Source: an uncultured Candidatus Bathyarchaeia archaeon (GTDB lineage Archaea > Thermoproteota > Bathyarchaeia > Bathyarchaeales > Bathyarchaeaceae). From it: a DNA stretch of 64,000 nt. The stretch is taken from assembly GCA_964399485.1 (NCBI GenBank), contig CAYNQS010000001.1, positions 64,797-128,796 of the forward strand, read 5' to 3'. The position numbers and the translations under genes are program-made. The notes below the pieces were generated by a model, which was not told where the DNA came from, searched no databases, and was given only the letters and a program-made list of their open reading frames with translations. Below, piece after piece: positions 6,270 through 62,268 of the stretch (positions are counted from its first letter, which is position 1; each line of letters opens with the position of its first letter).

Positions 6270-6288
6270 CCTCCAATTTTTCACATGC

Positions 6289-7146
6289 CTAAAATTCGAT
6301 AATGTCTCCAGTGTGAAGAGGTTGGCATCGGTCTCCGAATGCTTCAGCAAACTTTTTGCCAGCTCTTTTGCCTGTGCAGTGGCACGGTCCAACGAATTTT
6401 AGGTCAAGTTTCTCCAGTTCGTATGCTGTCGCCTGAATTCTCTCGTTCTCTACATTCCCGAGGTGGAAGCCTCCCAGAACCGCGTATACCCTGCTGTTTC
6501 CTGTTATTTTCTGGGCATACTTGATAGTGTTGATTATCCCCGCATGCGCACACCCAGCTACAACAACCAATCCTTTGTTTTCGACATCTATGACCAAAGA
6601 TTGGTCGTCAAGCATCACATCATCAACGAACTTTCTGTTGCGGACTGTCCAGAAGCCTCTAACACTCTCAAAAGCTGTAATTCTGGGGACTTCTCCAGTT
6701 GTGGTAATTCCGTCAGCTATCTTTACAGGATTAGTAGCCAGAATAGGTTTGCCACCAGCAGCCTCAACTTCAGAGGCGTGGAAAGGTGCACCGATAAACT
6801 TTAGATGCGGCTTCATCTTGAGTTTTGGACCGAAAACCGTTGGATGCCCAATAACTGGAACACGTTTTTTCATCCGTTTCAGGGCTTCCAGCAAGCCGCC
6901 TGTGTGGTCGTAGTGACCGTGACTAATCGCAATTACGTCAACATCTTCCAAATTCACGCCCATCGCATCCACATTGTGCAGAAGCGCTTCTGGCGATGCC
7001 CCCGTATCCATCAACACCGTCACTTCGTCGTCGCCAATTTTTGCTTTTGTGAAGAACGAGAGACCATGTTTGCTTTTGAGGTGAGGCTTAGCTGGGCTTT
7101 TAGAGTCTTCGATCAGAACTGTTATCTGGACGTTTTTGGCAGCCAT
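6289..7146 (-). CDS. Metallo-beta-lactamase fold protein (COG1237-like)
   Basis: HGHYDHTGG metal-binding motif; 285 aa. Confidence 0.8.
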   Translation of the reverse strand: MAAKNVQITVLIEDSKSPAKPHLKSKHGLSFFTKAKIGDDEVTVLMDTGASPEALLHNVDAMGVNLEDVDVIAISHGHYDHTGGLLEALKRMKKRVPVIGHPTVFGPKLKMKPHLKFIGAPFHASEVEAAGGKPILATNPVKIADGITTTGEVPRITAFESVRGFWTVRNRKFVDDVMLDDQSLVIDVENKGLVVVAGCAHAGIINTIKYAQKITGNSRVYAVLGGFHLGNVENERIQATAYELEKLDLKFVGPCHCTGKRAGKKFAEAFGDRCQPLHTGDIIEF

Positions 7147-16035: not shown

Positions 16036-16842
16036 TTATTGTTTCTCCCGTTTTTTTGAGCGTTTCTGTAGATATTGTTGTCCGACGAGCAGCGAGATTG
16101 ATGACAGGAAAACCATGACTGCGAAGGTTAAGCCCTCTGGAATAGTCTCCATAATAGAATAAGTTTGTCCCCACTCGTCGGGAACGTCAACGCTTGAGTC
16201 GGGCCATGCTTGTACCCCAGCTTCACTGTTACTTTCGTCGTATGCCGCCACTCTAACACATTGATCAGGGCCTGACTGAAGGGCCGAATGATCCATAACC
16301 ATTTCAACGATGTAGTGTGGAGTGCTGTTAGTTGGAGACTCACTTATTGAATCAACTATTTCGATGCTTTCTCCCCAAGTTAATTCATCGGTTTCAACCC
16401 AGCCTGATCCATCGCCTCTGTAAACCGTAAGCCCTGATTGATCGTGACCCACAAAGTCTACCCTAATATCGTCTGCATTCGGAGCAGAACCACCATCCGC
16501 GCTACCATCCAAACATAATTGCCAATAGTCTCCTGCATCATCAGTGTCGTCATCGTAAAATTCGATAATCCAAAACACGGGGATACCAGAATATCCACTA
16601 CCACTACTCATCAACCAATTCGTTCTGAAAACAACATTGAGGTCACCGTCCATTTGATGTTCCATATCAACGTCAGTCCATTCGTCAGATGGTGTCCACT
16701 CGCCATCTATGGTAGGTTCTGTCACAGCCATATAGTGGTCAAATTCATATCCCGTTTGATATGCGGTAGCGATTCCTGCATTTGCTAGCAAACCTAAACT
16801 CAACAACGCAATTATACAGAAAGTCACACCAATTTTCTTCAT
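16036..16842 (-). CDS. Secreted CBM9/DOMON-like protein with C-terminal PEx anchor (paralog of 3220..3999)
   Basis: Signal peptide, PTIDGEWTPSDEWTD, AGVQAWP...VDVPDEWG, C-terminus IPEG + hydrophobic helix + KRSKKREKQ. Confidence 0.75.
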   Translation of the reverse strand: MKKIGVTFCIIALLSLGLLANAGIATAYQTGYEFDHYMAVTEPTIDGEWTPSDEWTDVDMEHQMDGDLNVVFRTNWLMSSGSGYSGIPVFWIIEFYDDDTDDAGDYWQLCLDGSADGGSAPNADDIRVDFVGHDQSGLTVYRGDGSGWVETDELTWGESIEIVDSISESPTNSTPHYIVEMVMDHSALQSGPDQCVRVAAYDESNSEAGVQAWPDSSVDVPDEWGQTYSIMETIPEGLTFAVMVFLSSISLLVGQQYLQKRSKKREKQ

Positions 16843-30990: not shown

Positions 30991-32208
30991 TTACTGTTTT
31001 GTTGCCGAGGTCAGCCATGAAAAGAGGAAATAGCTGATCACCGCCAGTGCGCCCGGATACTTGATCATGGGAATAAGAGATCGTCCCTGAAAATCTAGGT
31101 CCCCAACCTTCTCAAGCACGCTGTCAACACCCAGTTTTCTGCACAAGTCAATCATCCCGTCTATTCTGCTGTCAGAAAGGCTGTTGAGCATTCTGCGCAT
31201 CCGAAGCATAGCAGCCAAGTCAAAACCAATCAAACTTTTCCATCGGGACTGGTAACGGGACAGAAAAGCCTCCGAAAAATCCTGCATTTTCACGGCTTCA
31301 TAGGCAGCCTCCCCTGCCACTCTAGCACATGTCAACCCAAAGATGACGCCTCCCCCGGTTGTGGGTTTCACTTGGGAAGCCGCGTCTCCAACCACCAGAA
31401 AACCGTCCGAATACGTTTTAGGGATTGGACCAGCCAACGGTATGGGATGAAAAGAACTGTATGTGGTTCTGCTTCTTTTCAGTTTCTCAGAGGCAATAGG
31501 GTGTTTCTCCATGAATCGCCGCAGATATTTTCCGGGGTCACCGGATTCGGTGGCTAAACCAACCTTCGCTGAGCCATCTTTTCTGGGGATTATCCAAGCA
31601 AAAAAGCCGGGAGCAACTTTACTTCCTAGATACACTTCAACCATGTCTTCCTCTGTCCCCTCCACGCAGTCAACTTCAGCTTGGGCTCCCTTCACCATCA
31701 TAGAACCCATCAGCCTCTGTAGACCGGTCTTCTTCAGAAGCTTTGATGAGCAGCCCTCAGTATCTATCACCACATTCGCCTCCACCCTCTCTTCTCCCTT
31801 TAAGACTACTCCCTTGACAGAACCTGAATCCAAAATTAGAGATTTCACCCTTGACTTGAAGCGGTACATGACTCCTGCTTTCATGGCAAGTTCAGCGAGG
31901 TGTTTGTCAAAGAGTTCCCTGTTAACTACATAGGTTACTGGAGCGCGGCACCGCAACACAAACTGTTTACCTGACGGAGAACAGAAAACGGCTCCTCTAA
32001 TCTCGTTTTCAATGGCAGCCCGTGGCATCCGCATTCCTAACCGTTCCAGACTGGAGACATTCAAGTGACCAGCACAGTGCTTAGGCACCCCTATCTCTTC
32101 ATGCTCTTCGCAAACCAGAACTTCGGCACCTAGTTTGGCGGCTGTATATGCCGCATATGAGCCACAGGGTCCTCCTCCGACTACAACGATGTCAGATTTT
32201 TCCTTCAC
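30991..32208 (-). CDS. Geranylgeranyl reductase family flavoprotein
   Basis: DIVVVGGGPCGSYAA FAD-binding fold and VVGDAASQVKPTTGGG motif. Confidence 0.85.
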   Translation of the reverse strand: MKEKSDIVVVGGGPCGSYAAYTAAKLGAEVLVCEEHEEIGVPKHCAGHLNVSSLERLGMRMPRAAIENEIRGAVFCSPSGKQFVLRCRAPVTYVVNRELFDKHLAELAMKAGVMYRFKSRVKSLILDSGSVKGVVLKGEERVEANVVIDTEGCSSKLLKKTGLQRLMGSMMVKGAQAEVDCVEGTEEDMVEVYLGSKVAPGFFAWIIPRKDGSAKVGLATESGDPGKYLRRFMEKHPIASEKLKRSRTTYSSFHPIPLAGPIPKTYSDGFLVVGDAASQVKPTTGGGVIFGLTCARVAGEAAYEAVKMQDFSEAFLSRYQSRWKSLIGFDLAAMLRMRRMLNSLSDSRIDGMIDLCRKLGVDSVLEKVGDLDFQGRSLIPMIKYPGALAVISYFLFSWLTSATKQ

Positions 32209-38425: not shown

Positions 38426-40108
38426 ATGAATATTTCAACGTTTTGTCGTAGAATGAGAGAAGAAGTTGCTGAACACTCAGTTGGAAGAGAAGATACTGCC
38501 GCTTTTCTAATATGGTATTTAGAAAACTATTTTAGACTTGAAACTGTTGATGCAATAAGTTCTGTTTGTGACAGTAGAAACGATAGAGGTATTGATGCAA
38601 TTTTTGTAGATGATGATGATCAAACCATATATATTTTTCAATCAAAGTTTAGCCCATCAAATAGGCAACGTCAAGGGGATAGAGATCTGAGAGATTTTAT
38701 GGGGACCCTACAATGGTTCAATAATGAAGCAGCGGTAAGGACATTGAAAAATGGAACAACAAGCCAAGAATTGAAATCTATTATCGAGAATCAAAAGATC
38801 ATAGAGAAAATAGATTATGAAAAGAGATTGGTTTTTGTAACTAATAAAAGATTTAATGACCATGCAAACGAATATCTTGCTACCACAGAGAATTTTGAAG
38901 CATATGATTTACAAAATCTTTTTGACAAATATACTTACTTTGCAGAGGAAGAAATTGATTTACCTGAGGTCGAATTAATCATTTCAAATTTGACCAACAT
39001 TGCATATAATTTGACTGGCGGGTTAAGGGCAAGAGTGTATGCAATTAGAGCCAAAGAACTTCTCAAGTTACATGGGATTCAAGATCGAACTCTCTTCTAC
39101 AAAAATGTGCGGTATAGCGTAGGAAAAACAAGGGTAAACAAAGATATTAAGAAAACTATTGATCAAAGAAACGAACATCAGAATTTCTTCTTGTATCATA
39201 ATGGCATCTCAATTATATGTAGAGAATTAACTGAGGATCACCAGAATCACAGAATAAGACTAAGGGGATATGCTATAGTTAATGGATGCCAATCCATGCT
39301 AACTTTCTATGAAAATCGGAATGAATTAAGTAACAACTTGTATGTCTTGGTCAAGATAATAACCATCAATCCAACATCCCCCTTGATCAAAAAAATTACG
39401 CATAATGCCAATAATCAAAACTCTATAAGCATTCGGGACCTCAGATCCAACGACTCAGTTCAAACTTGTTTGCAAAGAGAATTTCAAGAAATATTTGGTG
39501 ACAGGGTTTTTTACAATAGAAAACGGGGAGAGCTCTCTCCAAACGCTGATATTGTAATCGACAAAGATTTGGCTGCACAACTTATTACAGCAGTATATTT
39601 GAAGGAACCACACATGACTCATTTGAAGCAAAAACTGTTTGGAGAATATTACTCCAAAATCTTCTCAAGAAACATGACAGCGGAAAAAATATTCTTAGCC
39701 AAAAAAATCTATGATATTGTGGAAGAAAATTCTGATTTATTAGATAACGAACGCATTAGAAATTATGGTCTATCGCTCTTTTTCTTTTCACATGTCCTTG
39801 CAGAGATCCTGAACATGGATGAAACTGGTGCTGAAATACTAAATAATCCAAGACAATATATTGTAGATCAAATTGATCCTCTAACAAACAGTATAAGGCA
39901 AATCTGGAGATTAATAACGCCAGATATAAATGTCGATATAGAGGAATACACCGAACAAAATGATAATTATTTTGATTACAAAAACGTTTTCAAAAATGCT
40001 AACTTTGTAAGAACGATGGGACGCCAAATTACTGCAGATTATCAAAGAGTAATACGAAGAAATAATGATGACTCCTTCTCAAGAATATTTGAAACATTTT
40101 CTACATAG
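38426..40108 (+). CDS. AIPR (abortive infection phage resistance) family protein
   Basis: N-terminal nuclease-like GIDAIFVDDDDQTIYIFQSKF and central FLYHNGISIIC...VNGCQS motifs typical of AIPR. The gene and flanks are visibly AT-rich. Confidence 0.75.
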   Translation: MNISTFCRRMREEVAEHSVGREDTAAFLIWYLENYFRLETVDAISSVCDSRNDRGIDAIFVDDDDQTIYIFQSKFSPSNRQRQGDRDLRDFMGTLQWFNNEAAVRTLKNGTTSQELKSIIENQKIIEKIDYEKRLVFVTNKRFNDHANEYLATTENFEAYDLQNLFDKYTYFAEEEIDLPEVELIISNLTNIAYNLTGGLRARVYAIRAKELLKLHGIQDRTLFYKNVRYSVGKTRVNKDIKKTIDQRNEHQNFFLYHNGISIICRELTEDHQNHRIRLRGYAIVNGCQSMLTFYENRNELSNNLYVLVKIITINPTSPLIKKITHNANNQNSISIRDLRSNDSVQTCLQREFQEIFGDRVFYNRKRGELSPNADIVIDKDLAAQLITAVYLKEPHMTHLKQKLFGEYYSKIFSRNMTAEKIFLAKKIYDIVEENSDLLDNERIRNYGLSLFFFSHVLAEILNMDETGAEILNNPRQYIVDQIDPLTNSIRQIWRLITPDINVDIEEYTEQNDNYFDYKNVFKNANFVRTMGRQITADYQRVIRRNNDDSFSRIFETFST

Positions 40109-45187: not shown

Positions 45188-45286
45188 GGGCCCGTAGCTC
45201 AGCAAGGCAGAGCGGCGGACTGGTCCTGCGGGACTAGGTTGAGGCTCTTAACCCGTAGGTCAGGGGTTCAATTCCCCTCGGGCCCG
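45188..45286 (+). tRNA. tRNA, most likely Lys(CUU), with a 25-nt interruption in the anticodon arm; no encoded CCA
   Basis: Acceptor GGGCCCG/CGGGCCC, D-arm GCTC-AGCAAGGCA-GAGC, T-arm AGGGG-TTCAATT-CCCCT. Removing 45219..45243 gives stem GCGGG/CCCGT with loop CTCTTAA. Confidence 0.7.
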
Positions 45287-45390
45287 CTTCACTCCTCTAG
45301 ATAATGGCTGTTTTGTCACAAAATTCAAGTATCCAGCACGCCATAGTTTCTGTTGGGGTGTTCTTTGTGGCTGTTTTCAAGTTGCCGAAA

Positions 45391-45843
45391 ATGACTAAAC
45401 AGGAAATGTGGAAGCTGATTCGGAGGCAGAGGCTGTGCCGTATCGCCTTCAAGGGAGACGATTACCCGTACATGGCTCCGTTCCAGTATATCGTATTGGA
45501 TGATACGTTGTATTTTCACTTCACTGATTATGGCACGAAAATGAAGCTGATAGAAAATGACAAACGTGTCTGCGTAGAAATCGAAGAGTACCGGGAAGAC
45601 CTGAGCGAATACAGCTTCATCGTCCTAAGAGGCACCCTCAAAGTCGTCACTGACCCACAGGAAAGAGCTAAGGCGCTGCAGAAACTTGCGGAAGAGGGAG
45701 AACAGAAGCTTTCCCCGAGCTTTCTCCCTGCACACGGCTTCCGAAAAGAAGACGGCTGGAACTCACTAACTCCAGAAAACACTTCATTAGTAGCCATCAA
45801 ACTCGAGAACATAACCCAAGAAATAGGGCTGAAATCTCCCTGA
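45391..45843 (+). CDS. Pyridoxamine 5'-phosphate oxidase-like FMN-binding protein
   Basis: LCRIAF..DDYPYMAPFQYIVLDDTLYFHF and VCVEIEEY segments resemble the PNPOx-like split-barrel family. ORF open from 45304. Confidence 0.65.
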   Translation: MTKQEMWKLIRRQRLCRIAFKGDDYPYMAPFQYIVLDDTLYFHFTDYGTKMKLIENDKRVCVEIEEYREDLSEYSFIVLRGTLKVVTDPQERAKALQKLAEEGEQKLSPSFLPAHGFRKEDGWNSLTPENTSLVAIKLENITQEIGLKSP

Positions 45844-45893: not shown

Positions 45894-46712
45894 TCAGAAT
45901 GGCGCAAAGACTCCGATGAACACTAGCCATGCTAGGATTGATTTTGCCACGAAGCTGAGTATGATATAGACTCTTTCGCCGTACAGGTAGTCTCTCCAGC
46001 GTCCAACGCCCTTGTACTGCAGAACCATGTTGACTGCGAAGATGTTGAACAGGAAGAAGTAGATGAACAATATCATGTAAACGAAGGTTGGAGGGTCCAA
46101 GCCCGTGGATTGGATAGCAGCGACGAAATAGGCGTAGAGCACAACCCATGGTGTGAAGCCGGAAATGCTTCCGAGAATAAAGGCTGACCAGCTTGTTTTC
46201 TCCGTTTTCTGGTTCACCACTTCCATTAGGTAACCGAACATTATCATCATCGCATTCAAAACAAAAATCATGACCAGCGACCAGAAATCCCAGACGCCCA
46301 AGAACAATGCAATCAGCACAATCATTATGGAGCTAGAGAATGCATATTCGTACCATCGGTATGGATTCATGCCTTTTTTCAGATTCTCGTTATACTGTTT
46401 ATTCTTAACGAATGCAATAGCGAAATGAGCTAATGCAGAAATCAGCGGGAATGACGCCACAATAATTCCTAAGTATCCTACGGTGAACAAGACCTGTGGG
46501 TCTATAACTATTTGAAATGGTGGACCTTCACCTATTATGAATTTTGGGTAGAAAGTGTAAATGCTACGTTCCCACTCAAGTTGAGTTCCCAACAGCAGCA
46601 TCAATAATCCTTGGATTAGATGCAAAACACCAGCAGCTGCATTGAAGCGCTTAAGATGCGAGAAAGAAATCGGCGAGTTAGCTATAATCTCTTGTCTTTC
46701 TCTAAATTTCAT
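45894..46712 (-). CDS. Heliorhodopsin
   Basis: Seven TM segments, collinear with heliorhodopsin 48C12 as remembered: FNAAAGVLHLIQ, ISALAHF, YRWYEYAFSSSIMIVLIA, LQYKGVGRWRDYLYGERVYIILSFVAKSILAW (TM7 Lys). Confidence 0.9.
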   Translation of the reverse strand: MKFRERQEIIANSPISFSHLKRFNAAAGVLHLIQGLLMLLLGTQLEWERSIYTFYPKFIIGEGPPFQIVIDPQVLFTVGYLGIIVASFPLISALAHFAIAFVKNKQYNENLKKGMNPYRWYEYAFSSSIMIVLIALFLGVWDFWSLVMIFVLNAMMIMFGYLMEVVNQKTEKTSWSAFILGSISGFTPWVVLYAYFVAAIQSTGLDPPTFVYMILFIYFFLFNIFAVNMVLQYKGVGRWRDYLYGERVYIILSFVAKSILAWLVFIGVFAPF

Positions 46713-46877
46713 AAAGCATCATATCTAATTTTTGTTCTTTTATAATTTTTGTAGAAAAATTTTACACTGTCTTTTAGTTAGGCTAGTTGGCGACTGTGTT
46801 TTCAATTTGAACCCCACTTTTTAAAAAAGATGGTAATTGAAGTCTAGGTTTTCACACCTAATTCCTCAATAGCAGAT

Positions 46878-46976
46878 TTAAGCTAATTTTAGTTTTGCAC
46901 CACAAACAGAGCATTTTCCATCAGCTGTTATTTTTGGCTGTTCTTTGACCTCTTTTTTACAAAGCCCACACTTCAA
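46878..46976 (-). CDS. Possible 32-aa zinc-ribbon peptide
   Basis: TTG start 6 nt after GGAGGTG. Translation is MKCGLCKKEVKEQPKITADGKCSVCGAKLKLA. The longer 72-aa ORF lacks ribosome-binding-site support. Confidence 0.35.
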   Translation of the reverse strand: MKCGLCKKEVKEQPKITADGKCSVCGAKLKLA

Positions 46977-47132
46977 AATTTTCACCTCCCCCCGGAAAAA
47001 GGACTGATTCACGTAATATAATATGGCTTTTAGGCTAGTTAAGATTTTCGCCACCACAAAATACGTAATAAAAACTCTTAAAAACAGAATGCACAAAACA
47101 GTAAGGTGTAGCCATCAGAAGGGGGTGAGTCT

Positions 47133-47306
47133 ATGAAGTATTGTAAATGGACTTTAATTATAGTTGGGTTGATTGTTCTGGTGATGGGAATTGCAGGTCT
47201 GCCAGGCATTTCTGACATGGGAACTGAACCAGATTGGCATGCAGCATTAAAAATTGTCATTGGCATAGTTGCTGTAGTAGTTGCATTGATGGAAAAAAAG
47301 GAATGA
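47133..47306 (+). CDS. Possible 57-aa two-helix membrane protein (below the ORF-track cutoff)
   Basis: ATG after GGGGGTGAGTCT. Translation is MKYCKWTLIIVGLIVLVMGIAGLPG...IVIGIVAVVVALMEKKE. Confidence 0.45.
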   Translation: MKYCKWTLIIVGLIVLVMGIAGLPGISDMGTEPDWHAALKIVIGIVAVVVALMEKKE

Positions 47307-54020: not shown

Positions 54021-54166
54021 AGTTTTGTATAATCTGCCTTAGAACCTGTGGATTTTCTCTGGTTCGGTGTTTCGTGTTTTTGCAGGAACTTTTATATAGG
54101 TGTTTGGATGGATTATCCATCCGAGTGGGTGAAAACAATGGAAAACAAGATAACCAGCAAACTGGG

Positions 54167-55135
54167 ATGGTGGAAATAACGTCAAGGAAAACAATCATCG
54201 CTATCATACTATTGATAATAGTTGGAGTCACGGCAGTTATTGCCGTTTCACAATTCTACAAACCTGAGGAAGCAACCCCCGGTACGGTAAGCATTATAGA
54301 CGACGTTGGAAGAAACGTTACGATAACCGATTTTCCTCCGCAGAGAATAGTGTCAACGGCTGCTAGTTGTACGGAAATACTTTTCGCGTTGGGACTGGGA
54401 GACAAAGTCGTTGGTGTGGACGAATATTCCGACTATCCTCCAGAGGTTCTAGAAAGGGTTGATGCGGGCACCTTAACAACTGTAGGATCCTTCGCTGAAA
54501 TTAACATAGAGTTGGTTGTCAGCTTAGAACCTGATTTGATTGTGGCAACAAGTGGAGTGCAGAGTGCAGTTGTAGAAAACTTGGAGGGACAAGGCCAAAC
54601 TGTCATTGTTTTATATCCCGAAAGGTTTGACGGAGTACTCACAGACATTTCTTTGGTTGGAGAAATCACGGGCCAAACAGATGAGGCGGAAGAAATTGTA
54701 ACAGATATGCAGGAAAGAGCCCAGGAAATCGCTGAAAAAGTAAAAGACTTACCTAAAATACCTGTCTACATTGAAATGTTCTTCAATGGAGGCTACTGGA
54801 CTTTCGGGTCAGACTCGTATGTTGACGAGTTGATCTCTATGGCTGGTGGAACAAACGTGTTTTCGGGAGTCGGAGGCGGACACATATCAACATCTTCAGA
54901 GGAGATACTTCAAGCGAATCCAGAGATTATAATAATCTCGAGGGGTGCCATGGCAGATTTTTGTGGGCTTACAGCGGAAGTAATTAGAGCACGGCCGGGT
55001 TGGAACGAGATTTCCGCGGTGAAAAATGATCAGATATACGAAGTCACGGAATCTATCATAGTTTTAGGAGTGCCCAGACTGATTGATGGCTTGGAAGCGA
55101 TTGCTGAAATAATTCATCCGGAACTGTTCAGCTGA
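54167..55135 (+). CDS. ABC importer substrate-binding protein (FhuD/BtuF class, siderophore/heme/cobalamin type)
   Basis: N-terminal TM/signal anchor. RIVSTAASCTEILFALGLGDKVVGV and DLIVATSG are typical of Peripla_BP_2 proteins. Confidence 0.85.
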   Translation: MVEITSRKTIIAIILLIIVGVTAVIAVSQFYKPEEATPGTVSIIDDVGRNVTITDFPPQRIVSTAASCTEILFALGLGDKVVGVDEYSDYPPEVLERVDAGTLTTVGSFAEINIELVVSLEPDLIVATSGVQSAVVENLEGQGQTVIVLYPERFDGVLTDISLVGEITGQTDEAEEIVTDMQERAQEIAEKVKDLPKIPVYIEMFFNGGYWTFGSDSYVDELISMAGGTNVFSGVGGGHISTSSEEILQANPEIIIISRGAMADFCGLTAEVIRARPGWNEISAVKNDQIYEVTESIIVLGVPRLIDGLEAIAEIIHPELFS

Positions 55136-55155
55136 TTGCAGAGGACTAAGCAGTA

Positions 55156-55908
55156 ATGACGAACATCTACAACATCACACATTACAGTAGCAGCAACTCC
55201 ATATACATCCTCTTTAAGGGATGCAACTTCCAATGCAAAGGTTGTTTTATAAAGGACACGAAGTGGGACTACCACCTTGCAGATGACGTTCGTGAACATT
55301 TTGAAGCAACCAAAGATATTGAACTGTTATCGTTGAGCGAATTTGAGACTATCGTTAAAGGGCTTAATGTAAAACAAGCTGTTTTGGGCGGAGAAGAGTG
55401 CACTGTCGATGAAGAGCTGCCAAACGTAGTCGATTTGCTCACCAGTCTCGGCATCAAAACTCTCGTAACGACCAACGGTCATCGTTTAAATGAAGAATTG
55501 ATAGAAGAATTGGAGGCGGCAGGGCTCTCGGCTACTCGCATGAGTATCAAGGCATATGAGGACAGTATTCATCGACTTTACACAGGACACACTAACAAGT
55601 CAGTTTTGAAGCATTTCAGGCTTCTCAGCGAAAGTCGAATCAGACCTATTGCAGAGAGCACGTTAATCCCAGGGTTGGTCGAACAAAATGAAATTGAGAG
55701 AATAGCTGAATTTATTGCCATCATAAATCCAGCGATACCGTATAGAGTCGACGGGTTTCTTCCTTCCTATAAGGCGACTTGGCGAGCCCCCTCTCCAGAG
55801 GAAGTGATTAACGCAGTACATGCAGCCCAAAAGTATTTGTGGTGCGTTCACTATCTCCACTGCGCGACAGTACAGCATGAAAATAAAGTCTCCAGTGTAT
55901 ATCCATGA
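55156..55908 (+). CDS. Small radical SAM protein embedded in the ABC operon
   Basis: CNFQCKGC (C-x3-C-x2-C) near the N-terminus, LGGEE glycine-rich motif; 250 aa. Subfamily not recognised. Confidence 0.8.
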   Translation: MTNIYNITHYSSSNSIYILFKGCNFQCKGCFIKDTKWDYHLADDVREHFEATKDIELLSLSEFETIVKGLNVKQAVLGGEECTVDEELPNVVDLLTSLGIKTLVTTNGHRLNEELIEELEAAGLSATRMSIKAYEDSIHRLYTGHTNKSVLKHFRLLSESRIRPIAESTLIPGLVEQNEIERIAEFIAIINPAIPYRVDGFLPSYKATWRAPSPEEVINAVHAAQKYLWCVHYLHCATVQHENKVSSVYP

Positions 55909-55950
55909 ATTAAGTAAGGTGACCCATTATCAGACGATAAAGGAGAGGCG

Positions 55951-57036
55951 ATGACTCCTATGAGTTCAAGTGAAGCTGAGAGTGCGTATTTCAAGCGGTT
56001 TGCTAGATGGAAATTTATCGTCCTCATTCTAATTCTGGCTCTAATACTTACAATGACATTTGCTATCACAGTTGGTCCAGTGCCAATTTCGCCTATTGAT
56101 GCCTATAAGATAGTTATCAATAAGATACCTTTCATAGGCGATTTGATCACAAGCGGGTCATCATCCATGGAGGAATCTGTCATAATGCTAGTAAGATTAC
56201 CCCGTGTGTTGGGTGCGGCACTTGTTGGAATTGCTCTTGCAGTAGCTGGCGTTGTCTTACAGGGGCTATTTAGGAATCCAATGGCCGATCCATACTTAAT
56301 AGGCATTTCTGCTGGAGCAAGCGTGGGCGCATCACTTGCCATAGCTTTTGGAATCGGTTTATCGTTTTTTGGAGTGCTATATTCAGTCCCTCTTATGGCA
56401 TTCATTTTTGCTATTGGCACGGTTTTCTTGGTTTACACTATTTCAAGGACAGGAAAAGAAGTGCCGATGTCAACACTGTTGCTCGTTGGAATAGCTGTCA
56501 ACAGTTTTCTAATGGCTATTACTGCAATCATCAGATTGATTGCCGGTGAAGCAGTACATGCCATAATGACTTGGATGTTTGGCAGCCTTAATTTAGTTGA
56601 CTGGAACTATGTAGAAATCGCCTTACCCTTCGTGGTGGTTGGTGTAGCCCTGATCTATGTTTTTGCCAGAGACCTAAACATAATGCTGCTTGGTGAAGAA
56701 CAAGCTCATCATCTTGGAGTGGATACCGAAAGGCTGAAAAAAATTTTGCTTACCTCTGCAACGTTAATGACAGCGGCAGCAGTTTCAATTAGTGGTATAA
56801 TTGGTTTTGTCGGATTGATTATTCCACATGTAGCAAGAATCTTAGTGGGTCCAGATCACCGAATTTTAATACCATCATCTGCATTAACGGGGGCAATAGT
56901 TCTAATTTTGTGTGACACAGCAGCACGCACCGTCGTTAGACCAATGCAGTTGCCAGTTGGCATAATTACCGCTCTCCTAGGCGCGCCCTTTTTCATATAC
57001 TTAGTACGTAGGAAAAAACGTTCAGTAATAGGGTAA
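55951..57036 (+). CDS. FecCD/BtuC family ABC permease
   Basis: Polytopic, with RLPRVLGAALVG, NPMADPYLIGISAGA and PVGIITALLGAPFF family motifs. Confidence 0.9.
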   Translation: MTPMSSSEAESAYFKRFARWKFIVLILILALILTMTFAITVGPVPISPIDAYKIVINKIPFIGDLITSGSSSMEESVIMLVRLPRVLGAALVGIALAVAGVVLQGLFRNPMADPYLIGISAGASVGASLAIAFGIGLSFFGVLYSVPLMAFIFAIGTVFLVYTISRTGKEVPMSTLLLVGIAVNSFLMAITAIIRLIAGEAVHAIMTWMFGSLNLVDWNYVEIALPFVVVGVALIYVFARDLNIMLLGEEQAHHLGVDTERLKKILLTSATLMTAAAVSISGIIGFVGLIIPHVARILVGPDHRILIPSSALTGAIVLILCDTAARTVVRPMQLPVGIITALLGAPFFIYLVRRKKRSVIG

Positions 57037-57046
57037 GGATGGAAAA

Positions 57047-58336
57047 TTGGTAAACTTGAGAATTAGCGGCATAGACTGCTACTATGGGTCAATTAAAGCA
57101 TTGGATAACATCAATTTTTCAGTTAGAGAAGGCGAATTTGTAGGCATTTTAGGCCCAAACGGATCAGGAAAAACAACTGCTCTCAGGGCAATTAGCAGAA
57201 CCTTGAAACCCAGAATGGGGACGATTTTCTTAGATGACAAAAACATTTACGACATGGAGAACAGGGAGGTAGCAAAAAACGTAGCTGTGGTGCCTCAAGA
57301 GAGCATATCAACCTTTGATTTCACAGTATTAGACATTGTGCTCATGGGACGGAACCCATACATAGACCGTTTCAGACAGGAAAGCAGAGAAGACCTAGCC
57401 ATAGCCAAGAGAGTTATGGAGTTAACAAACACATGGAGTTTAGCTGAAAGACCAGTTAACGAGTTAAGCGGCGGAGAAAAACAGCGCGTCATAATTGCGC
57501 GTGCCCTAACTCAAGAACCGAAAATTCTTTTGCTAGACGAACCGACAAGCCACTTGGACATAAGCAATCAACTAGAGATAATGGACCTCATCAAACGTTT
57601 ATGCGAAACTAAAAAGCTGCTGATAATCGCCGTTTTCCACGACTTCAACCTAGCTGCCCGATACTGCGACTCAATTATTCTTTTGAATGAGGGAAAAATC
57701 GTTGCTGTCGGAAAATCAGACGAGACTCTCACCAGCGAAAACGTCAGAAAAGTTTTCAGCGTTGACACCATCGTCAAAAAGCATCCTGTCACCGGCTTCC
57801 TTCACGTTATCCCCGTTTCAAGACCCCTAAACCAGAAACAAAAAACCCTTTCCATCCATCTGATTAGTGGATGCGGCACAGGTAGCCCCCTGATGAAGAT
57901 TTTGAAGGACGAAGGCTATTTCGTGACTGCTGGGGTTCTCAACCTGCTGGACACTGATCAAGAGACTGCTCAGCTGCTGAAGATTCCAACAACAAGTGAA
58001 GCCCCCTTCTCTCCCATAACCGAAGAAGCTTACACGGCAAACCTGAAGATGATAAACAAAGCCAACACTATAGTTATAACGCCGACCCAGTTTGGTGACG
58101 GCAACCTGCGTAACCTCGAAGCTGCAGAAACGGCTCTGAAAAAAGGAATACAGATCATCCTCCTAGAAAATGGGCCAATCGAAGAGAGGGACTTCACCAA
58201 CGGCAAAGCCACAAAATACTTGGCATCACTCAAAAACAACGGCGCCATAACCGTGAAGAGCAACAAGGAACTCCTACATTTTCTCGACAAACTAGAAAAG
58301 AAAAACAACAAAAATTCCCATAAGAAAAAGGGATGA
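57047..58336 (+). CDS. ABC ATPase (FecE/BtuD type) with about 170-aa C-terminal Rossmann-like extension
   Basis: GPNGSGKTT, LSGGEKQRV and LLLDEPTSHLD, followed by an extra domain beginning IHLISGCGTGSPLMKILKDEGYFVTAGVLNLLD. Confidence 0.9.
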   Translation: MVNLRISGIDCYYGSIKALDNINFSVREGEFVGILGPNGSGKTTALRAISRTLKPRMGTIFLDDKNIYDMENREVAKNVAVVPQESISTFDFTVLDIVLMGRNPYIDRFRQESREDLAIAKRVMELTNTWSLAERPVNELSGGEKQRVIIARALTQEPKILLLDEPTSHLDISNQLEIMDLIKRLCETKKLLIIAVFHDFNLAARYCDSIILLNEGKIVAVGKSDETLTSENVRKVFSVDTIVKKHPVTGFLHVIPVSRPLNQKQKTLSIHLISGCGTGSPLMKILKDEGYFVTAGVLNLLDTDQETAQLLKIPTTSEAPFSPITEEAYTANLKMINKANTIVITPTQFGDGNLRNLEAAETALKKGIQIILLENGPIEERDFTNGKATKYLASLKNNGAITVKSNKELLHFLDKLEKKNNKNSHKKKG

Positions 58337-58419
58337 GGCAACAGAAACTGTTACACAACCCTCTTTCTGGAAAAATTAAATACATTTTTATCTCCTCGTT
58401 AAACTCTTGAATACTGCTC

Positions 58420-59508
58420 ATGGTGAAGATTTTGAAGTCCAATGGACCCCTATTCATTCTGCCTTGGAGATGCACACAAGCCTGCACCAGCAGTTGTCTA
58501 CACTGCGGTTTCGCATCAAACCCCCCCGCCTCTGACGCCCTCGGAACCAAAGAAGTCATGCGTATCGTGGACGAAATCTACGATTTTGGGGCAACTTATC
58601 TAGGATTAAGCGGCGGAGAACCCCTTCTGCGAAAAGACCTACCAGAAATAATCGGCTACGCCAAAAACGTCGGCTTGAACGTGAGTCTCATAACCAACGG
58701 CTACCATGTTGACGGCAAAATCTTCGACAACCTAGTTAGACACGATGTTCGCGTCTCACTGAGTGTTGACGGAACAGAAGAAATCAACGATGCTATACGA
58801 GGAAAGGGCGCATACGAAAAAGCTGTTTCAGCCATGGAAAAAACTTCTAAAGCGGGGCTGCTGGACTGTCTTGTGGCAACCCTTGCCAATGTTGACGCAA
58901 CCCGCAATAACCTCACCTCCGAAGATATGGAGCACGTCATCCAACTGGCTGAAAGGTATGGCGCCCGGTGGGTGGTGATTCACGGCTTCATTCCCTTCAA
59001 CCGAACAAAAGAGCACCTCGCCAAGTCTCCATCCCCACAGCAGTACGAGAAGATTTGGAACCAAGTCTATGATTTGCGGCTGAAGTACTACGGAAAACCT
59101 GAAGTCAACGTTTATTGCCCCTTCTTCGCCCGCATCGCCAAGGAACGGGGCATGCCGGATCTCCATCACTGGTTCAACAACATTTTCCTTGGCAAGTGCT
59201 CCATCGCCGGCAAATACATGAGCGTAATCGAAAACGGAGACGTTATCCCCTGCAGCTTCAACGACCATATCCGACTTGGAAACGTTCAGGATAAGCCGCT
59301 GAAGCAAATCTGGGATGAACATCAAACCTCAGCACTTACTCGCAAGCTCAGGGATCGGAGTAACCTGAAAGGCAAATGTGGCGTCTGCGAGTACCGCGAA
59401 ATCTGTGGCGGATGTCGAACCAGAGCAGAGATGTACACTGGAGATATTTTCGCCTCTGACCCAGCATGCGGATACGTGCCTAAACTATTGCGTGAAAAAA
59501 CTGAATAA
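58420..59508 (+). CDS. Radical SAM/SPASM protein, NirJ/AhbC/AhbD-like (paralog 1)
   Basis: CTSSCLHC cluster motif, SGGEPLL, C-terminal GKCGVCEYREICGGCRTRAE SPASM motif. Confidence 0.85.
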   Translation: MVKILKSNGPLFILPWRCTQACTSSCLHCGFASNPPASDALGTKEVMRIVDEIYDFGATYLGLSGGEPLLRKDLPEIIGYAKNVGLNVSLITNGYHVDGKIFDNLVRHDVRVSLSVDGTEEINDAIRGKGAYEKAVSAMEKTSKAGLLDCLVATLANVDATRNNLTSEDMEHVIQLAERYGARWVVIHGFIPFNRTKEHLAKSPSPQQYEKIWNQVYDLRLKYYGKPEVNVYCPFFARIAKERGMPDLHHWFNNIFLGKCSIAGKYMSVIENGDVIPCSFNDHIRLGNVQDKPLKQIWDEHQTSALTRKLRDRSNLKGKCGVCEYREICGGCRTRAEMYTGDIFASDPACGYVPKLLREKTE

Positions 59509-59569
59509 CCATTCATCTAAATGCATCTGTTTCTTTCCTTATACTAAGTAAACATTGACTGAAAACACA

Positions 59570-59577
59570 TTATAATT
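59570..59577 (+). promoter_or_regulatory. Candidate TATA box for the left M2 element
   Basis: TTATAATT 30 nt upstream of the conserved block, preceded by the A-rich AAAACAC. Confidence 0.3.
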
Positions 59578-59599
59578 CACGTTCATACCTAATTTTTTA

Positions 59600-59661
59600 G
59601 TCAAGAAAATTTGACTAACGTATGGTGTGGTTGGTCAAGAATCCTTTACAAAAATCCTTTT
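59600..59661 (+). ncRNA. M2 element, left copy (candidate leader RNA, small RNA or operator)
   Basis: 62 nt, 57/62 identical to the reverse complement of 62532..62593. Contains GTCAA-N6-TTGAC and TTGACTAA-N12-TTGGTCAA. Confidence 0.35.
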
Positions 59662-59702
59662 ATTACCTACTCTCCACGTAATCAATTGTTGGAGCTCCTA
59701 AC

Positions 59703-59837
59703 ATGAAAAAGACCGCATTAAGATTCGTTATGTTGCTACATTCTACTAGAAAAATCAATCTCACAAAAGCGGCACCTAAGACCATAGTTGCTCCTGCGCT
59801 CACGCAAAAAAGCAACGACTGGATAGCACGCGGCTAA
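59703..59837 (+). CDS. Possible 44-aa ORF upstream of radical SAM paralog 2
   Basis: ATG after GGAGCTCCTAAC. Translation is MKKTALRFVMLLHSTRKINLTKAAPKTIVAPALTQKSNDWIARG. No other support. Confidence 0.2.
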   Translation: MKKTALRFVMLLHSTRKINLTKAAPKTIVAPALTQKSNDWIARG

Positions 59838-59909
59838 CACAGTGGGACTCCAACACTCTAACCCCTACTAACATAATAAGGGAGTAATGTAAAGGAGTGC
59901 GAACAAACC

Positions 59910-60959
59910 GTGAATAGAAGACCTCTCCTGTATATGATGACTTGGAGATGTACGAGAGCTTGTAACTATAACTGTTTGCACTGCAGTTTCGGTTCCAGCC
60001 CTGCCGCCATTAACGAGATCGACACCAAAGGTGGAATGCGCATAGTTGATGAACTTTATGAGATGGGGGCAAAGTGGTTTGGGCTGAGCGGCGGAGAACC
60101 TCTTCTGCGGAAGGACATTTTTGAGATCATTAAGCATGCGAAGAGTCTGGGCATGAATGTGAGCCTCATAACCAACGGCTACTATGTTAAGGGGGATATT
60201 CTCGACAACCTAATCCGAAACGAGGTTATGACCGCGGTAAGTCTTGATGGAAGAGAGGAGTCGCACGATTTTATACGCGGCAAAGGCGCCTATGCAACAG
60301 CTCTTCTGGCTATGGAGAATTTGTCTGAGGGCGGAATTTTTGATTGCGTCGTAAGTACACTGAATAAGCGTAACTGCTCGGAGGTGGATCATGTAGCCCA
60401 GGTGGCGCATGAGTATGATGCTACTCGTGTGGTTTATCACAATTACATTCCTGTTGGCAGAGCTGAGGAGCATCTGGAGTTGGCTCCCACCCCACAGCAG
60501 TATGAGACGGTTTTGAATAGAATTTACGATTTGATGCAGGAGTATAGAGGAAAACTCGGCGTCAACGTTTATTGTCCCTTCTTCGCTCGCATCGCCAAGG
60601 AAAGGGGTATGCCCGACTTTGATTACTGGTTCAACAATGTGTTTCTTGGGCAGTGCTTTATTGGCGGCAGATATATTGGTCTGCTGGAAAATGGTGACAT
60701 GCGACCCTGTGGCTTTAATGAGGGTTACCGTATGGGCAACATTAAGAACAAGTTGATGAAGGAGATTTGGGCTGACATGCAGACATCAGAGTTCACTCGT
60801 AAGCTCAGGGATCGGAGTAACCTGAAGGGCAAATGTGGCGTCTGCGAATACCGCGAAATCTGTGGCGGATGCCGAACCAGAGCAGAAATCTACACTGGCG
60901 ACCTCTTCCAGTCTGACCCAGCATGCGGATACGTGCCTAAACTATTGCGCGAAAAATAG
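59910..60959 (+). CDS. Radical SAM/SPASM protein, NirJ/AhbC/AhbD-like (paralog 2)
   Basis: CNYNCLHC, SGGEPLL and the same C-terminal SPASM motif as paralog 1. GTG start after AAGGAGTG. Confidence 0.85.
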   Translation: MNRRPLLYMMTWRCTRACNYNCLHCSFGSSPAAINEIDTKGGMRIVDELYEMGAKWFGLSGGEPLLRKDIFEIIKHAKSLGMNVSLITNGYYVKGDILDNLIRNEVMTAVSLDGREESHDFIRGKGAYATALLAMENLSEGGIFDCVVSTLNKRNCSEVDHVAQVAHEYDATRVVYHNYIPVGRAEEHLELAPTPQQYETVLNRIYDLMQEYRGKLGVNVYCPFFARIAKERGMPDFDYWFNNVFLGQCFIGGRYIGLLENGDMRPCGFNEGYRMGNIKNKLMKEIWADMQTSEFTRKLRDRSNLKGKCGVCEYREICGGCRTRAEIYTGDLFQSDPACGYVPKLLREK

Positions 60960-60972
60960 GGCGACAACAAAG

Positions 60973-62268
60973 TTATTTGTTTTCTGCGAATTCCCACGCG
61001 ATGTTGGCTTTCCAGAGGTCTCCAAGTTCGGTTATTTTGATTTCTTTTTCGTTTATTTCGATTAGTCCCTTTTCTTTCAGTCTTTTCAGTTGTTCAGGGT
61101 ACACTTCTTCGGGGAGCTTTCCGAACCTTTCCTTGAATTCCAGTTTATCTACGGGTAGGCGCAGGTAGAGTTTTGTCATCACCTTTCTCATCATGTCTTC
61201 GTCTGTAGATTTCGAGAGTTTTGCGATCGGAAATCTTCCTTCCTGAACAGTTGCAACGTAGTCGTTCGCCAGCTCGATGTTGGAGTAAGAAAATCTCTGA
61301 AGATATCCCATGAAGCATCCTGCTCCTGTCGTTAGGATGCCTGCCCAAGGCCATCCGTTTAGGCAGTTCTCTTTGGCGTGCCATTCTACTCTGGAGTAGC
61401 GGTCGTGACCAATCGGCTTGTAGCCCGCCTCCGTGAACAGTTCGTATGCTGCAACATACATTTTCTTCTCCAGTTCCGGGTCTGCTTGGGGCGGCACCTT
61501 CCCAGCTTGCATCTGTTTATACAAGACCGTTTCAGGGTAAACTTCAAGGCAGTATGCGTCAACTTCCGCATCTAATTCGATTGCCGTCTTCACAGTGTCG
61601 ATCCAGCTTTCCAGTGTTTGTCCTGGAATGCTGTACATTATGTCTATGCAGACGCAGAGTCCAAGTTTTCTGGCGAGTCTGACTTCCTCTTTTACGTGTT
61701 CTGCGCTGTCCGGCAGATTCAGCATCCTTCGGAGTTTGTCGTCGAAGGTTTGGGCTCCCATGTCCACTTGGAAGACGCCGTATTCTGCGGCTGCAACTAG
61801 CTTCTCTTTGGAGAAGCTTCTGGATGAGCCCGTGATTTTGATGAAGTAGTCGTCTACTGTGTTGAAGTTTTGTTCGCAGAATTTTATCAGATCAAACATC
61901 TGGTCTTTGGTCATGAGGCTTGGTGTTCCTCCGCCCAGAACTATTTCGTCGAATTCGCTGGTTTTGACATACTTTGTTTCAGCGTACATCATCAGCTCTT
62001 TCTTTAAAGCCTTGAGATATGGTTCCATCTTGGCGCTGGAGTAAGGGTTGTTTGGGTAGTAGCAGAAGGTGCATCTGGAGTCGCAGAAGGATATCCACGG
62101 CTGGAGCTCCATCACCTTGTTTGACGTGTTCTCGGTTGCCAGGAACCCCATGAATTCCTTGTATGTTTCAGGTGCGATGTCCGGATAATCTCGGTATGTG
62201 TAAGGCGGCCAGCTCTCTCTTGAACTGTATGTGTTCTCTTTCTCTGCTTCGGGGATAGCTGATTTCAT
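60973..62268 (-). CDS. HemN-family radical SAM protein (HemN/HemW/ChuW-like)
   Basis: CDSRCTFC cluster motif, LGGGTPS, C-terminal HemN_C-like winged-helix tail; 431 aa. Confidence 0.85.
   Translation of the reverse strand: MKSAIPEAEKENTYSSRESWPPYTYRDYPDIAPETYKEFMGFLATENTSNKVMELQPWISFCDSRCTFCYYPNNPYSSAKMEPYLKALKKELMMYAETKYVKTSEFDEIVLGGGTPSLMTKDQMFDLIKFCEQNFNTVDDYFIKITGSSRSFSKEKLVAAAEYGVFQVDMGAQTFDDKLRRMLNLPDSAEHVKEEVRLARKLGLCVCIDIMYSIPGQTLESWIDTVKTAIELDAEVDAYCLEVYPETVLYKQMQAGKVPPQADPELEKKMYVAAYELFTEAGYKPIGHDRYSRVEWHAKENCLNGWPWAGILTTGAGCFMGYLQRFSYSNIELANDYVATVQEGRFPIAKLSKSTDEDMMRKVMTKLYLRLPVDKLEFKERFGKLPEEVYPEQLKRLKEKGLIEINEKEIKITELGDLWKANIAWEFAENK

Follow-up and report, generated by a model that had tools for sequence, protein, structure and literature searches.

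Introduction

Among heliorhodopsins (HeRs) of solved structure, TaHeR from a Thermoplasmatales archaeon (PDB 6is6, 7u55, 7clj) and 48C12 from a freshwater actinobacterium (PDB 6su3, 6uh3) are reportedly non-transporting proteins with slow photocycles. Here, we describe an HeR gene in a 64,000-nucleotide stretch from an uncultured Candidatus Bathyarchaeia archaeon (contig CAYNQS010000001.1 of assembly GCA_964399485.1; the whole stretch is called the window below), together with a zinc-ribbon microprotein encoded directly upstream of it. As a finding, the HeR is correct but ordinary: the type of gene, the host clade, the neighbors, and the retinal puzzle were all known before. The rhodopsin-linked microprotein, in contrast, may be new; it is not mentioned in the main texts of the HeR papers that were searched.

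Bathyarchaeota HeRs were described by Pan et al. (2020; PMC7110647; with Béjà as co-author) from Bathy-6 and Bathy-8 genomes, with transcripts detected in mangrove sediment, and the puzzle of sediment archaea sensing light was discussed there along with exogenous retinal. Bulzu et al. (2021) placed the HeRs of Bathyarchaeia and Methanobacteria in one cluster (C10), noted HeRs in strict anaerobes, and found a complete retinal pathway in only 1 of 381 heliorhodopsin-only genomes. According to Chazan et al. (2021), recurrent HeR neighbors include a SOUL haem-binding domain, AhpC/TSA, photolyase, and pyridoxamine-5'-phosphate oxidase, and were tied to oxidative stress, while DegV and DUF2177 were the most HeR-specific neighbors across prokaryotes. 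HeR partner pairs with experimental support have been published for AbHeR and glutamine synthetase, TfHeR and photolyase, and OcHeR and the OmrDE ABC transporter.

The only known small zinc-finger regulator of an opsin gene is Brz (OE3104F) from Halobacterium salinarum, whose deletion, or mutation of its Cys/His residues, abolishes bop transcription (Tarasov et al., 2008; PMC2253796). The same study defined the 'CPxCG-related' motif as two Cys/His patterns 7–40 residues apart, at least one of which is CPxCG, CPxCx, or CxxCG.

Identity and conservation of the heliorhodopsin

45,894–46,712, minus strand: HeR gene, ATG-to-stop open reading frame (ORF), 272 amino acids
HeR residues Lys257 (Schiff base), Glu122 (single counter-ion), His31, His96, and Ser253: key residues
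HeR residues 17–44, 73–102, 120–138, 143–169, 175–202, 209–234, and 239–269: helices of the AlphaFold2 model

The initial annotation of the window had named the 272-residue product a heliorhodopsin collinear with 48C12, and profile and structure searches bore this out. The protein matched PF18761 (Heliorhodopsin) over profile positions 1–241 of 242 (308 bits, E 5e-92; cut-off 26.7) and reached the NCBIfam equivalog NF038020 'heliorhodopsin HeR' (348 bits; cut-off 100), so the standard NCBI pipeline would assign the name automatically. Its best PDB matches were TaHeR (6is6, E 1.5e-57) and 48C12 (6su3, E 8e-47), and the alignment to the latter spans residues 18–271. The type-1 rhodopsin profile PF01036 (Bac_rhodopsin) gave no match at E ≤ 0.01.

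Residues were mapped by HMMER alignments to 48C12, in a chain numbering that reproduces H23, E107, and K241, and conservation was assessed in a MAFFT alignment with 82 clade members, 68–95% identical overall. The four motifs singled out by the initial annotation fit the functional residues of 48C12: GVLHLIQ holds His31 (H23), ALAHF holds His96 (H80), RWYEYAFSSS holds Glu122 (E107), and SFVAKSILAW holds Lys257 (K241). The Schiff-base lysine and the counter-ion are retained in the alignment to characterized HeRs. All four motif residues and Ser253 (S237) were invariant in 82/82 clade members, and Arg119, Trp120, Tyr123, Asn116, Ser92, and Asn24 were likewise conserved. Across 24 mapped pocket or active-site positions, 20 were invariant among the 82 relatives and the remaining four nearly so; all 24 were kept relative to 48C12 or TaHeR, apart from one Leu-to-Met change.

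TaHeR is both the best solved relative and the best structural match of the window HeR. The two belong to the same length class, share the set of Lys, Glu, two His, and Ser, and both have Met at the position of 48C12 Q213; they differ in host phylum within the archaea, in the TM1–TM2 (transmembrane helices 1 and 2) extracellular loop, which is approximately 7–8 residues longer in the window HeR, and in Asn153, which is Thr in TaHeR. From 48C12, H23, H80, E107, S237, K241, N16, S76, N101, R104, W105, and Y108 are kept, whereas Q213 and L143 are both replaced by Met; moreover, 48C12 comes from an aerobic bacterium and the window HeR from an anaerobic archaeon. Identity amounts to 42% with 48C12 and approximately 45% with TaHeR (247 columns).

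An AlphaFold2 model generated with 39 close homologues as input was of moderate confidence (pLDDT 66, pTM 0.61) and comprised seven long helices. Foldseek ranked HeR crystal structures, with 6is6, 7u55, 7clj, and 6su3 as the best entries, at all of the positions 1–9 (TM-score 0.62–0.75); type-1 rhodopsin structures matched at 11–18% identity, below every HeR entry. Approximately 16 Lys/Arg residues lie on the predicted cytoplasmic side (five in the N-terminal segment, five in the TM2–3 loop, two in the TM4–5 loop, four in the TM6–7 loop) vs. two on the predicted outer side, both in the TM1–2 loop, with none in the other outside segments. By the positive-inside rule, this distribution predicts the inverted topology, with a cytoplasmic N-terminus and the C-terminus outside. 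The host, a Bathyarchaeon, is a monoderm, as expected for an HeR carrier; the envelope of the cultivated relative Candidatus Bathyarchaeum tardum was described as a cytoplasmic membrane with an S-layer around it.

The comparison with TaHeR and 48C12 bears on whether the protein might instead be a light-driven ion transporter or a light-harvesting device for phototrophy, perhaps with an externally acquired carotenoid antenna. Pan et al. (2020, PMC7110647) considered phototrophy possible in Bathyarchaeota, a viral heliorhodopsin is reported to transport protons, and a 2025 preprint argues for a carotenoid-binding fenestration in most heliorhodopsins. In some related loci a schizorhodopsin, a real pump, stands next to the HeR. 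However, the nearest characterized relatives are the two proteins reported not to transport ions, their active-site residues are retained in the window HeR, and no transport-type motif change was observed; we consider transport or light harvesting very improbable.

No identical HeR was found on record by an exact-sequence look-up. A protein search returned 4702 matches, of which the top 120 clusters were 77–95% identical, and NCBI labels several near relatives 'heliorhodopsin HeR [Candidatus Bathyarchaeota archaeon]'. Species-representative genomes yielded at least 527 matching stretches when scanned, and the 80 best were nearly all from Bathyarchaeia; HeRs of Methanobacteriaceae, Hadarchaeota, and Methanosuratincola at 68–71% identity were also among them. 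The complete genome of B. tardum (CP122380) carries an HeR that is 79% identical to that of the window. Within the Bathyarchaeia/Methanobacteria clade, the protein is an intact and ordinary heliorhodopsin, and it shares clade, hosts, and the conclusion of light sensing without a retinal pathway with the published Bathyarchaeota HeRs (Bathy-6 and Bathy-8 of Pan et al.; C10 of Bulzu et al.). The initial annotation had implied that an HeR in an anaerobic archaeon is noteworthy in itself; the reports of Bathyarchaeota HeRs with transcripts in 2020, and of strict anaerobes and cluster C10 in 2021, had anticipated this point. Taken alone, the window HeR adds one further sequence, 95% identical to the nearest deposited one, to a well-populated published clade.

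Two side observations concern the distribution of the gene (L numbers denote individual loci). In L004 (GCA_964603675.1), an HeR of 82% identity has a wholly different gene context (glyoxalase, presenilin-like protein, peptidase M54), which, with the copies at 68–71% identity in Methanobacteriaceae and Hadarchaeota, points to mobility of the HeR gene among anaerobic archaea. Furthermore, several genomes of L007–L086 (e.g., JBHORG01, CAZPND01, JAOUKN01, and JAOUPL01) hold two different HeR loci each, and paralogous copies therefore occur within one Bathyarchaeon.

Host lifestyle and retinal supply

The archaeal housekeeping genes in the window encode Trm5/TYW2, diphthine synthase, CTP-dependent riboflavin kinase, RibL-type FAD synthase, Alba, TruD, aIF-2B, and others. 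Five radical-SAM genes and an NrdG2 activase gene support an anaerobic lifestyle of the host, in agreement with the initial annotation, which had listed many oxygen-sensitive radical SAM enzymes and a gene resembling an anaerobic ribonucleotide reductase activase. One of the five radical-SAM proteins reaches the NrdG2 equivalog score for this activase (197 bits; cut-off 131). A flavodoxin is also encoded, and Pfam and NCBIfam profile scans found no oxidase, catalase, or superoxide dismutase among the window proteins. B. tardum itself is a cultivated strict anaerobe, inhibited by 2% O2 according to its description paper.

Also as annotated initially, no retinal-synthesis gene (crt, blh, or brp) was found among the approximately 65 window ORFs that were scanned or inspected. 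A divergent Blh/Brp among the ORFs without a Pfam match was considered and rejected, none of these being a multi-pass membrane protein. A geranylgeranyl reductase gene at 30,991–32,208 (minus strand; TIGR02032, 224 bits) could pass for crtY by its above-threshold match to Pfam Lycopene_cycl (50 bits). This match covers only the N-terminal Rossmann part, the carotene-cyclase model scored 37 (cut-off 210), and the CrtY assignment was rejected. The crtY reported by Pan et al. in two Bathyarchaeota metagenome-assembled genomes might be the same artefact. Missing retinal genes are the norm in heliorhodopsin-only genomes.

If the cell cannot make retinal, the opsin might also not be photoactive in a dark-dwelling anaerobe at all, being either a relic or a protein with a light-independent role such as lipid or carotenoid binding. 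The absence of a retinal-synthesis gene from the window is consistent with this, as are the abundance of Bathyarchaeota in subsurface sediment (Pan et al., 2020, PMC7110647) and the description of B. tardum, which mentions neither a rhodopsin nor a light response. Against it, the invariance of Lys257, Glu122, His31, His96, and Ser253 in 82 members of 68–95% identity is unexpected for a relic, HeR transcripts are present in mangrove sediment (Pan et al., 2020, PMC7110647), and families with a relation to light (schizorhodopsin, Staygreen, and TudS-DUF1722) are enriched around the gene. A non-photoactive opsin is therefore very improbable in our view.

Genes beside the heliorhodopsin

45,391–45,843, plus strand: PNPOx-like split-barrel flavoprotein gene (Pfam Pyridox_ox_2, PF12900, 83 bits), 150 amino acids

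The neighbors named in the initial annotation, an FMN-binding PNPOx-like protein, a zinc ribbon, and a two-helix membrane peptide, are all present, but two of the ORFs had been drawn too long: the PNPOx-like protein probably has 150 rather than 179 residues, and the zinc ribbon has 32 rather than 72. The start of the PNPOx-like gene, which probably lies at 45,391, was taken from the 150-residue genes called in L001 and L005. The gene is convergent with the HeR gene, with 50 bp between the stop codons, and the pair is therefore not co-transcribed in the window. The protein does not reach the equivalog score of pyridoxamine-5'-phosphate oxidase proper and stays far below the equivalogs of the Nim nitroimidazole reductases (NimABCDEF 38 bits, cut-off 260; NimIJ 28 bits, cut-off 270).

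The window block is syntenic with relatives at 79–95% HeR identity, B. tardum included, in the order DUF371, Trm5, [small genes], HeR, PNPOx-like, tRNA-Lys, diphthine synthase, DUF357, RibL, RibK; the relatives have ABC transporters in place of the tRNA and small genes of the window. Among 21 distinct matches to the PNPOx-like orthogroup within ±10 kb of an HeR, 15 are at most 300 bp away from it. Three arrangements of the pair (convergent, divergent, and co-directional) occur among relatives, PNPOx identity ranges from 51 to 93%, and some pairs lie in contexts without any other gene in common with the window. Because of this close spacing, the three arrangements, the range of identity, and the unrelated contexts, the link between HeR and the PNPOx-like gene exceeds inherited synteny.

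To obtain an unbiased count, immediate neighbors of HeR were tallied in 80 distinct loci and the families confirmed by Pfam. SOUL proteins were immediate neighbors in 13/80 loci (vs. four loci at distal positions) and PNPOx-like proteins in 12/80 (vs. five), followed by TudS-DUF1722 in six, nitroreductase in three, and AhpC/TSA in three. At least one recurrent partner was found within two genes of HeR in 44 of the 80 loci. Homologues of Staygreen (PF12638), the family of chlorophyll Mg-dechelatases, recur at nine loci, no more than a few kb away from HeR or the microprotein (L093 at 6160–6624, minus strand; L096, L010, L017, L030, L047, L051, L080, and L160). A fusion of TudS (2-thiouracil desulfurase, DUF523) with DUF1722 adjoins the HeR in L020 (17,145–18,128, plus strand) and in five other loci; its E. 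coli relative YbgA is co-operonic with photolyase, which would make the fusion another light-linked neighbor. The neighborhood is not random, and the published oxidative-stress theme, at which Chazan et al. (2021) and Bulzu et al. (2021) arrived independently, is reproduced for this clade.

The same tally speaks to the hypothesis of Chazan et al. that HeR is a light-dependent enzyme or a lipid-remodeling factor. It draws on DegV and DUF2177 as the most HeR-specific neighbors across prokaryotes (Chazan et al., 2021), but neither family was among the recurrent neighbors in the 80 distinct loci of this clade, nor was either found in the window, and it appears to be the least probable of the alternatives considered here.

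The experimentally supported partner pairs share with the present case the working model of an HeR that modulates a protein encoded next to it, and ABC transporters flank the HeR-PNPOx pair in L001, L005, and L006. They differ in that neither glutamine synthetase, photolyase, nor an ABC transporter is adjacent to the window HeR, whose neighbors are not co-transcribed with it, and the ten published partner groups include neither PNPOx nor a zinc ribbon.

A zinc-ribbon microprotein found beside rhodopsin genes

46,878–46,976, minus strand: zinc-ribbon microprotein gene, product (M)KCGLCKKEVKEQPKITADGKCSVCGAKLKLA, 32 amino acids, TTG start, 165 bp upstream of HeR on the same strand
46,983–46,989, minus strand: Shine-Dalgarno-like GGAGGTG, 6 nt upstream of the microprotein TTG
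46,823–46,828, minus strand: run of six T, past the microprotein stop codon and ahead of the HeR promoter region
46,738–46,745, minus strand: TATA-like TTATAAAA, read from the sequence, approximately 29 nt upstream of the HeR ATG

Conservation across loci starts at (M)KCGLC, the remainder of the 72-residue ORF being unconserved, and GGAGGTG or GGAGGTGA is repeated upstream of the gene at several other loci. The 98 copies collected comprise 75 nucleotide versions and 36 peptides, and the four cysteines of the motif CxxC-x15-CxxCG are invariant in the 36 distinct peptides. Differences per site at codon positions 1, 2, and 3 were 0.10, 0.05, and 0.52, respectively (dN/dS approximately 0.05). The set was gathered by peptide similarity, which biases it toward conservation; even so, the third codon positions are near-saturated, and the microprotein is therefore a real coding gene under strong purifying selection. 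The T run may be an archaeal oligo-T terminator, and the TATA-like element suggests that HeR is transcribed from a promoter of its own, into an mRNA with no leader or a very short one.

The association was also tested in reverse, with the microprotein as the sole seed for 80 metagenome loci; these were ranked by similarity to the window copy, which biases them to close relatives. HeR was present in 32 and the immediate neighbor in 23 of the 80, the next commonest family reaching seven. Where at least 1.2 kb was available on both sides, HeR lay within 600 bp in 16 of 31 loci. In the HeR-seeded genome loci, 11 of 17 distinct microprotein copies were at most 300 bp from HeR, in four orientations. 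Among 27 close pairs, the microprotein was 5' on the same strand in 16, convergent in five, divergent in four, and 3' on the same strand in two; the HeRs of the pairs are 68–95% identical to the window HeR and their flanking contexts vary. SOUL, Staygreen, NAD synthase, and a 57-residue two-helix peptide also recur beside the microprotein.

A second rhodopsin was found beside the microprotein in L148/L155, L153/L154, and L090 (Bac_rhodopsin PF01036, 99 bits), with schizorhodopsin SzR4 (7e4g, E 7e-37) as the nearest PDB entry. The schizorhodopsin-like gene of L148 (6298–7050, plus strand) has, by eye, an F-S-E motif in helix 3. Such genes lie near a Bathyarchaeia-type HeR in L148, L155, and the genome loci L030 and L075, while none was detected in L153, L154, or L090, the last being a contig of only 2 kb. 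Bathyarchaeia are not mentioned in a 2025 schizorhodopsin preprint.

The closest precedent is Brz, to which the microprotein is likened by size, motif, and position. Both are very small archaeal proteins with a paired zinc motif of the CxxC(G) type, and both genes lie immediately 5' of an opsin gene on its strand. The window microprotein falls within the CPxCG-related definition, with 32 residues (< 100), CGLC(K/G)...CSVCG, and a 15-residue spacer. The microprotein is shorter than Brz, has four Cys instead of a Cys/His mix, and partners heliorhodopsin or schizorhodopsin rather than bacteriorhodopsin; bat, brp, and blp genes are not near it. A looser parallel is Znf-HeR of Thermoplasmatales (Bulzu et al., 2021), in which a CxxC...CxxC zinc ribbon is likewise tied to the cytoplasmic side of the HeR. 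There, the ribbon is fused at the N-terminus (CxxC-x17-CxxC), whereas the window ribbon is a separate gene with a spacer of 15, its own ribosome-binding motif, and a possible terminator. The N-terminal 24 residues of the window HeR contain no Cys and hence no such fusion. PDB 9vfc (317 residues) was considered as a Znf-HeR and rejected, being the HeR of the eukaryote Chromera. By this analogy, the microprotein would most likely be a Brz-like small regulator of the neighboring opsin gene.

Alternatively, the association could reflect inherited synteny or hitch-hiking in a variable islet, with the microprotein an unrelated zinc ribbon, e.g., a truncated Rpo12/RpoP paralogue. The only PDB match was indeed a weak one to the Rpo12 ribbon (18 bits, E 0.009; residues 7–34 of the 49-residue Rpo12), and several homologues are labeled RPC12/RpoP by JGI. 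The C-terminal tail of Rpo12 docks into the polymerase. The microprotein terminates three residues past the aligned region and lacks this tail of approximately 15 residues (Rpo12 has 48–49 residues); it was, moreover, never found beside ribosomal-protein genes, and identity with RpoP/Rpo12 was rejected on length and context. Several further points weigh against a functional link: HeR is absent within 600 bp in 15 of the 31 well-flanked microprotein loci, most HeR loci, that of B. tardum included, lack the microprotein within 10 kb, likeness to the window copy governed the choice of the 80 metagenome loci, and the T run and TATA-like box between the two genes suggest separate transcripts. Nor is there a fusion with a rhodopsin: a 43-residue query returned 31 short stand-alone ORFs, and a scan of 1.84 billion representative proteins gave 38 clusters without an HeR-sized single-match protein, the few long matches being multi-repeat Cys-rich proteins. 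On the other side stand the excess of HeR over any other family as immediate neighbor (23 vs. 7 of 80 loci), the occurrence of all four relative orientations with HeRs of 68–95% identity and differing flanks, and the position beside an unrelated second rhodopsin family where no HeR was detected (L153/L154, and the 2-kb contig L090). We regard hitch-hiking as quite possible, though short of probable.

Other features of the window

45,188–45,287, plus strand: tRNA-Lys(CTT) with a 25-nt intron at position 32/33 according to ARAGORN (Rfam RF00005, 52 bits), given as context only
47,133–47,306, plus strand: two-helix membrane peptide, 57 amino acids, divergent from the microprotein gene

The tRNA was overlooked by ARAGORN at default settings and recovered by Rfam and by ARAGORN with introns allowed; it stands where L001, L005, and L006 have an ABC-2 transporter pair. 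The 57-residue peptide gave weak DUF308- and SfLAP-like Pfam matches, each under the cut-off, and is found beside the microprotein at 64–100% identity in L012, L025, L087, L088, L097, L103, L104, L110, L119, and L133.

Three further regions were noted in passing. A tetrapyrrole-flavored cluster at 54,074–62,268 comprises a Peripla_BP_2/FecCD/ABC importer, a small radical-SAM gene, two AhbD/NirJ-like radical-SAM/SPASM genes, and a ChuW/HemW-like gene, every one under the NCBIfam equivalog cut-offs. An abortive-infection-like gene (AIPR + Mrr_cat; 38,426–40,108, plus strand) sits in a GC trough (0.35 vs. approximately 0.45) between QueT and isocitrate-dehydrogenase-family genes, and this stretch is probably an inserted defence islet. 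Two paralogous signal-peptide proteins without a Pfam match (3220–3999, plus strand, and 16,036–16,842, minus strand) share the motif DGEWT..DEWTD...YWQ(I/L)CLD..GGSAP.

Proposed role and significance

Taken together, the locus is very probably best explained by an intact HeR that acts as a light sensor within a photo-oxidative-stress gene set, with a Brz-like microprotein beside it. By extension from the characterized relatives, the protein would bind all-trans-retinal at Lys257, absorb green-yellow light, and undergo a slow photocycle without ion pumping, as TaHeR and 48C12 do. The retinal would be scavenged from the environment and not synthesized by the cell, because crt, blh, and brp are missing from the window and HeR-only genomes usually lack the pathway. 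As a light sensor, the HeR would alter the activity of soluble or membrane partner proteins on the cytoplasmic side. In this lineage, it may serve a loosely clustered light and photo-oxidative-stress set made up of the PNPOx-like, SOUL, Staygreen, peroxiredoxin, nitroreductase, and TudS-DUF1722 genes, and sometimes schizorhodopsin. To an oxygen-sensitive archaeon, light probably signals nearness to the oxic, oxidizing, photosensitizer-rich sediment surface; the flavin- and tetrapyrrole-handling neighbors and the peroxiredoxins would form the response side, and the microprotein may regulate opsin expression in the manner of Brz.

Several points weigh against this interpretation. Retinal binding, color, photocycle, and the lack of transport are extrapolated from proteins of 42–45% identity, and the structural model has a pLDDT of only 66. 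Many Bathyarchaeota live where visible light barely penetrates (Pan et al., 2020, PMC7110647). No recurrent neighbor at all accompanies the HeR in 36 of the 80 distinct loci, and SOUL, AhpC, and PNPOx adjoin proton-pump rhodopsins too and are not HeR-specific (Chazan et al., 2021). The neighbors are, in addition, mostly separate transcription units, as seen in the window from the convergent PNPOx-like gene and from the T run and TATA-like box that separate the microprotein from HeR.

For the clade as a whole, the presence of the HeR-PNPOx pair in the cultivated B. tardum means that a light-response experiment can now be carried out. Beside two rhodopsin families there recurs a gene whose small size puts it out of reach of routine annotation and Pfam-based neighborhood surveys. 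The microprotein may be a dedicated, previously unnoticed rhodopsin companion in Bathyarchaeia, acting as a Brz-like regulator or a cytoplasmic binding partner for HeRs and schizorhodopsins, and may form with the PNPOx-like, SOUL, Staygreen, and peroxiredoxin genes a light-response module of strict anaerobes; we put this forward tentatively, as a rather unlikely reading in its full extent. If the link is functional, it would offer a testable route into the regulation or signaling of heliorhodopsins, and with it a concrete handle on their role.

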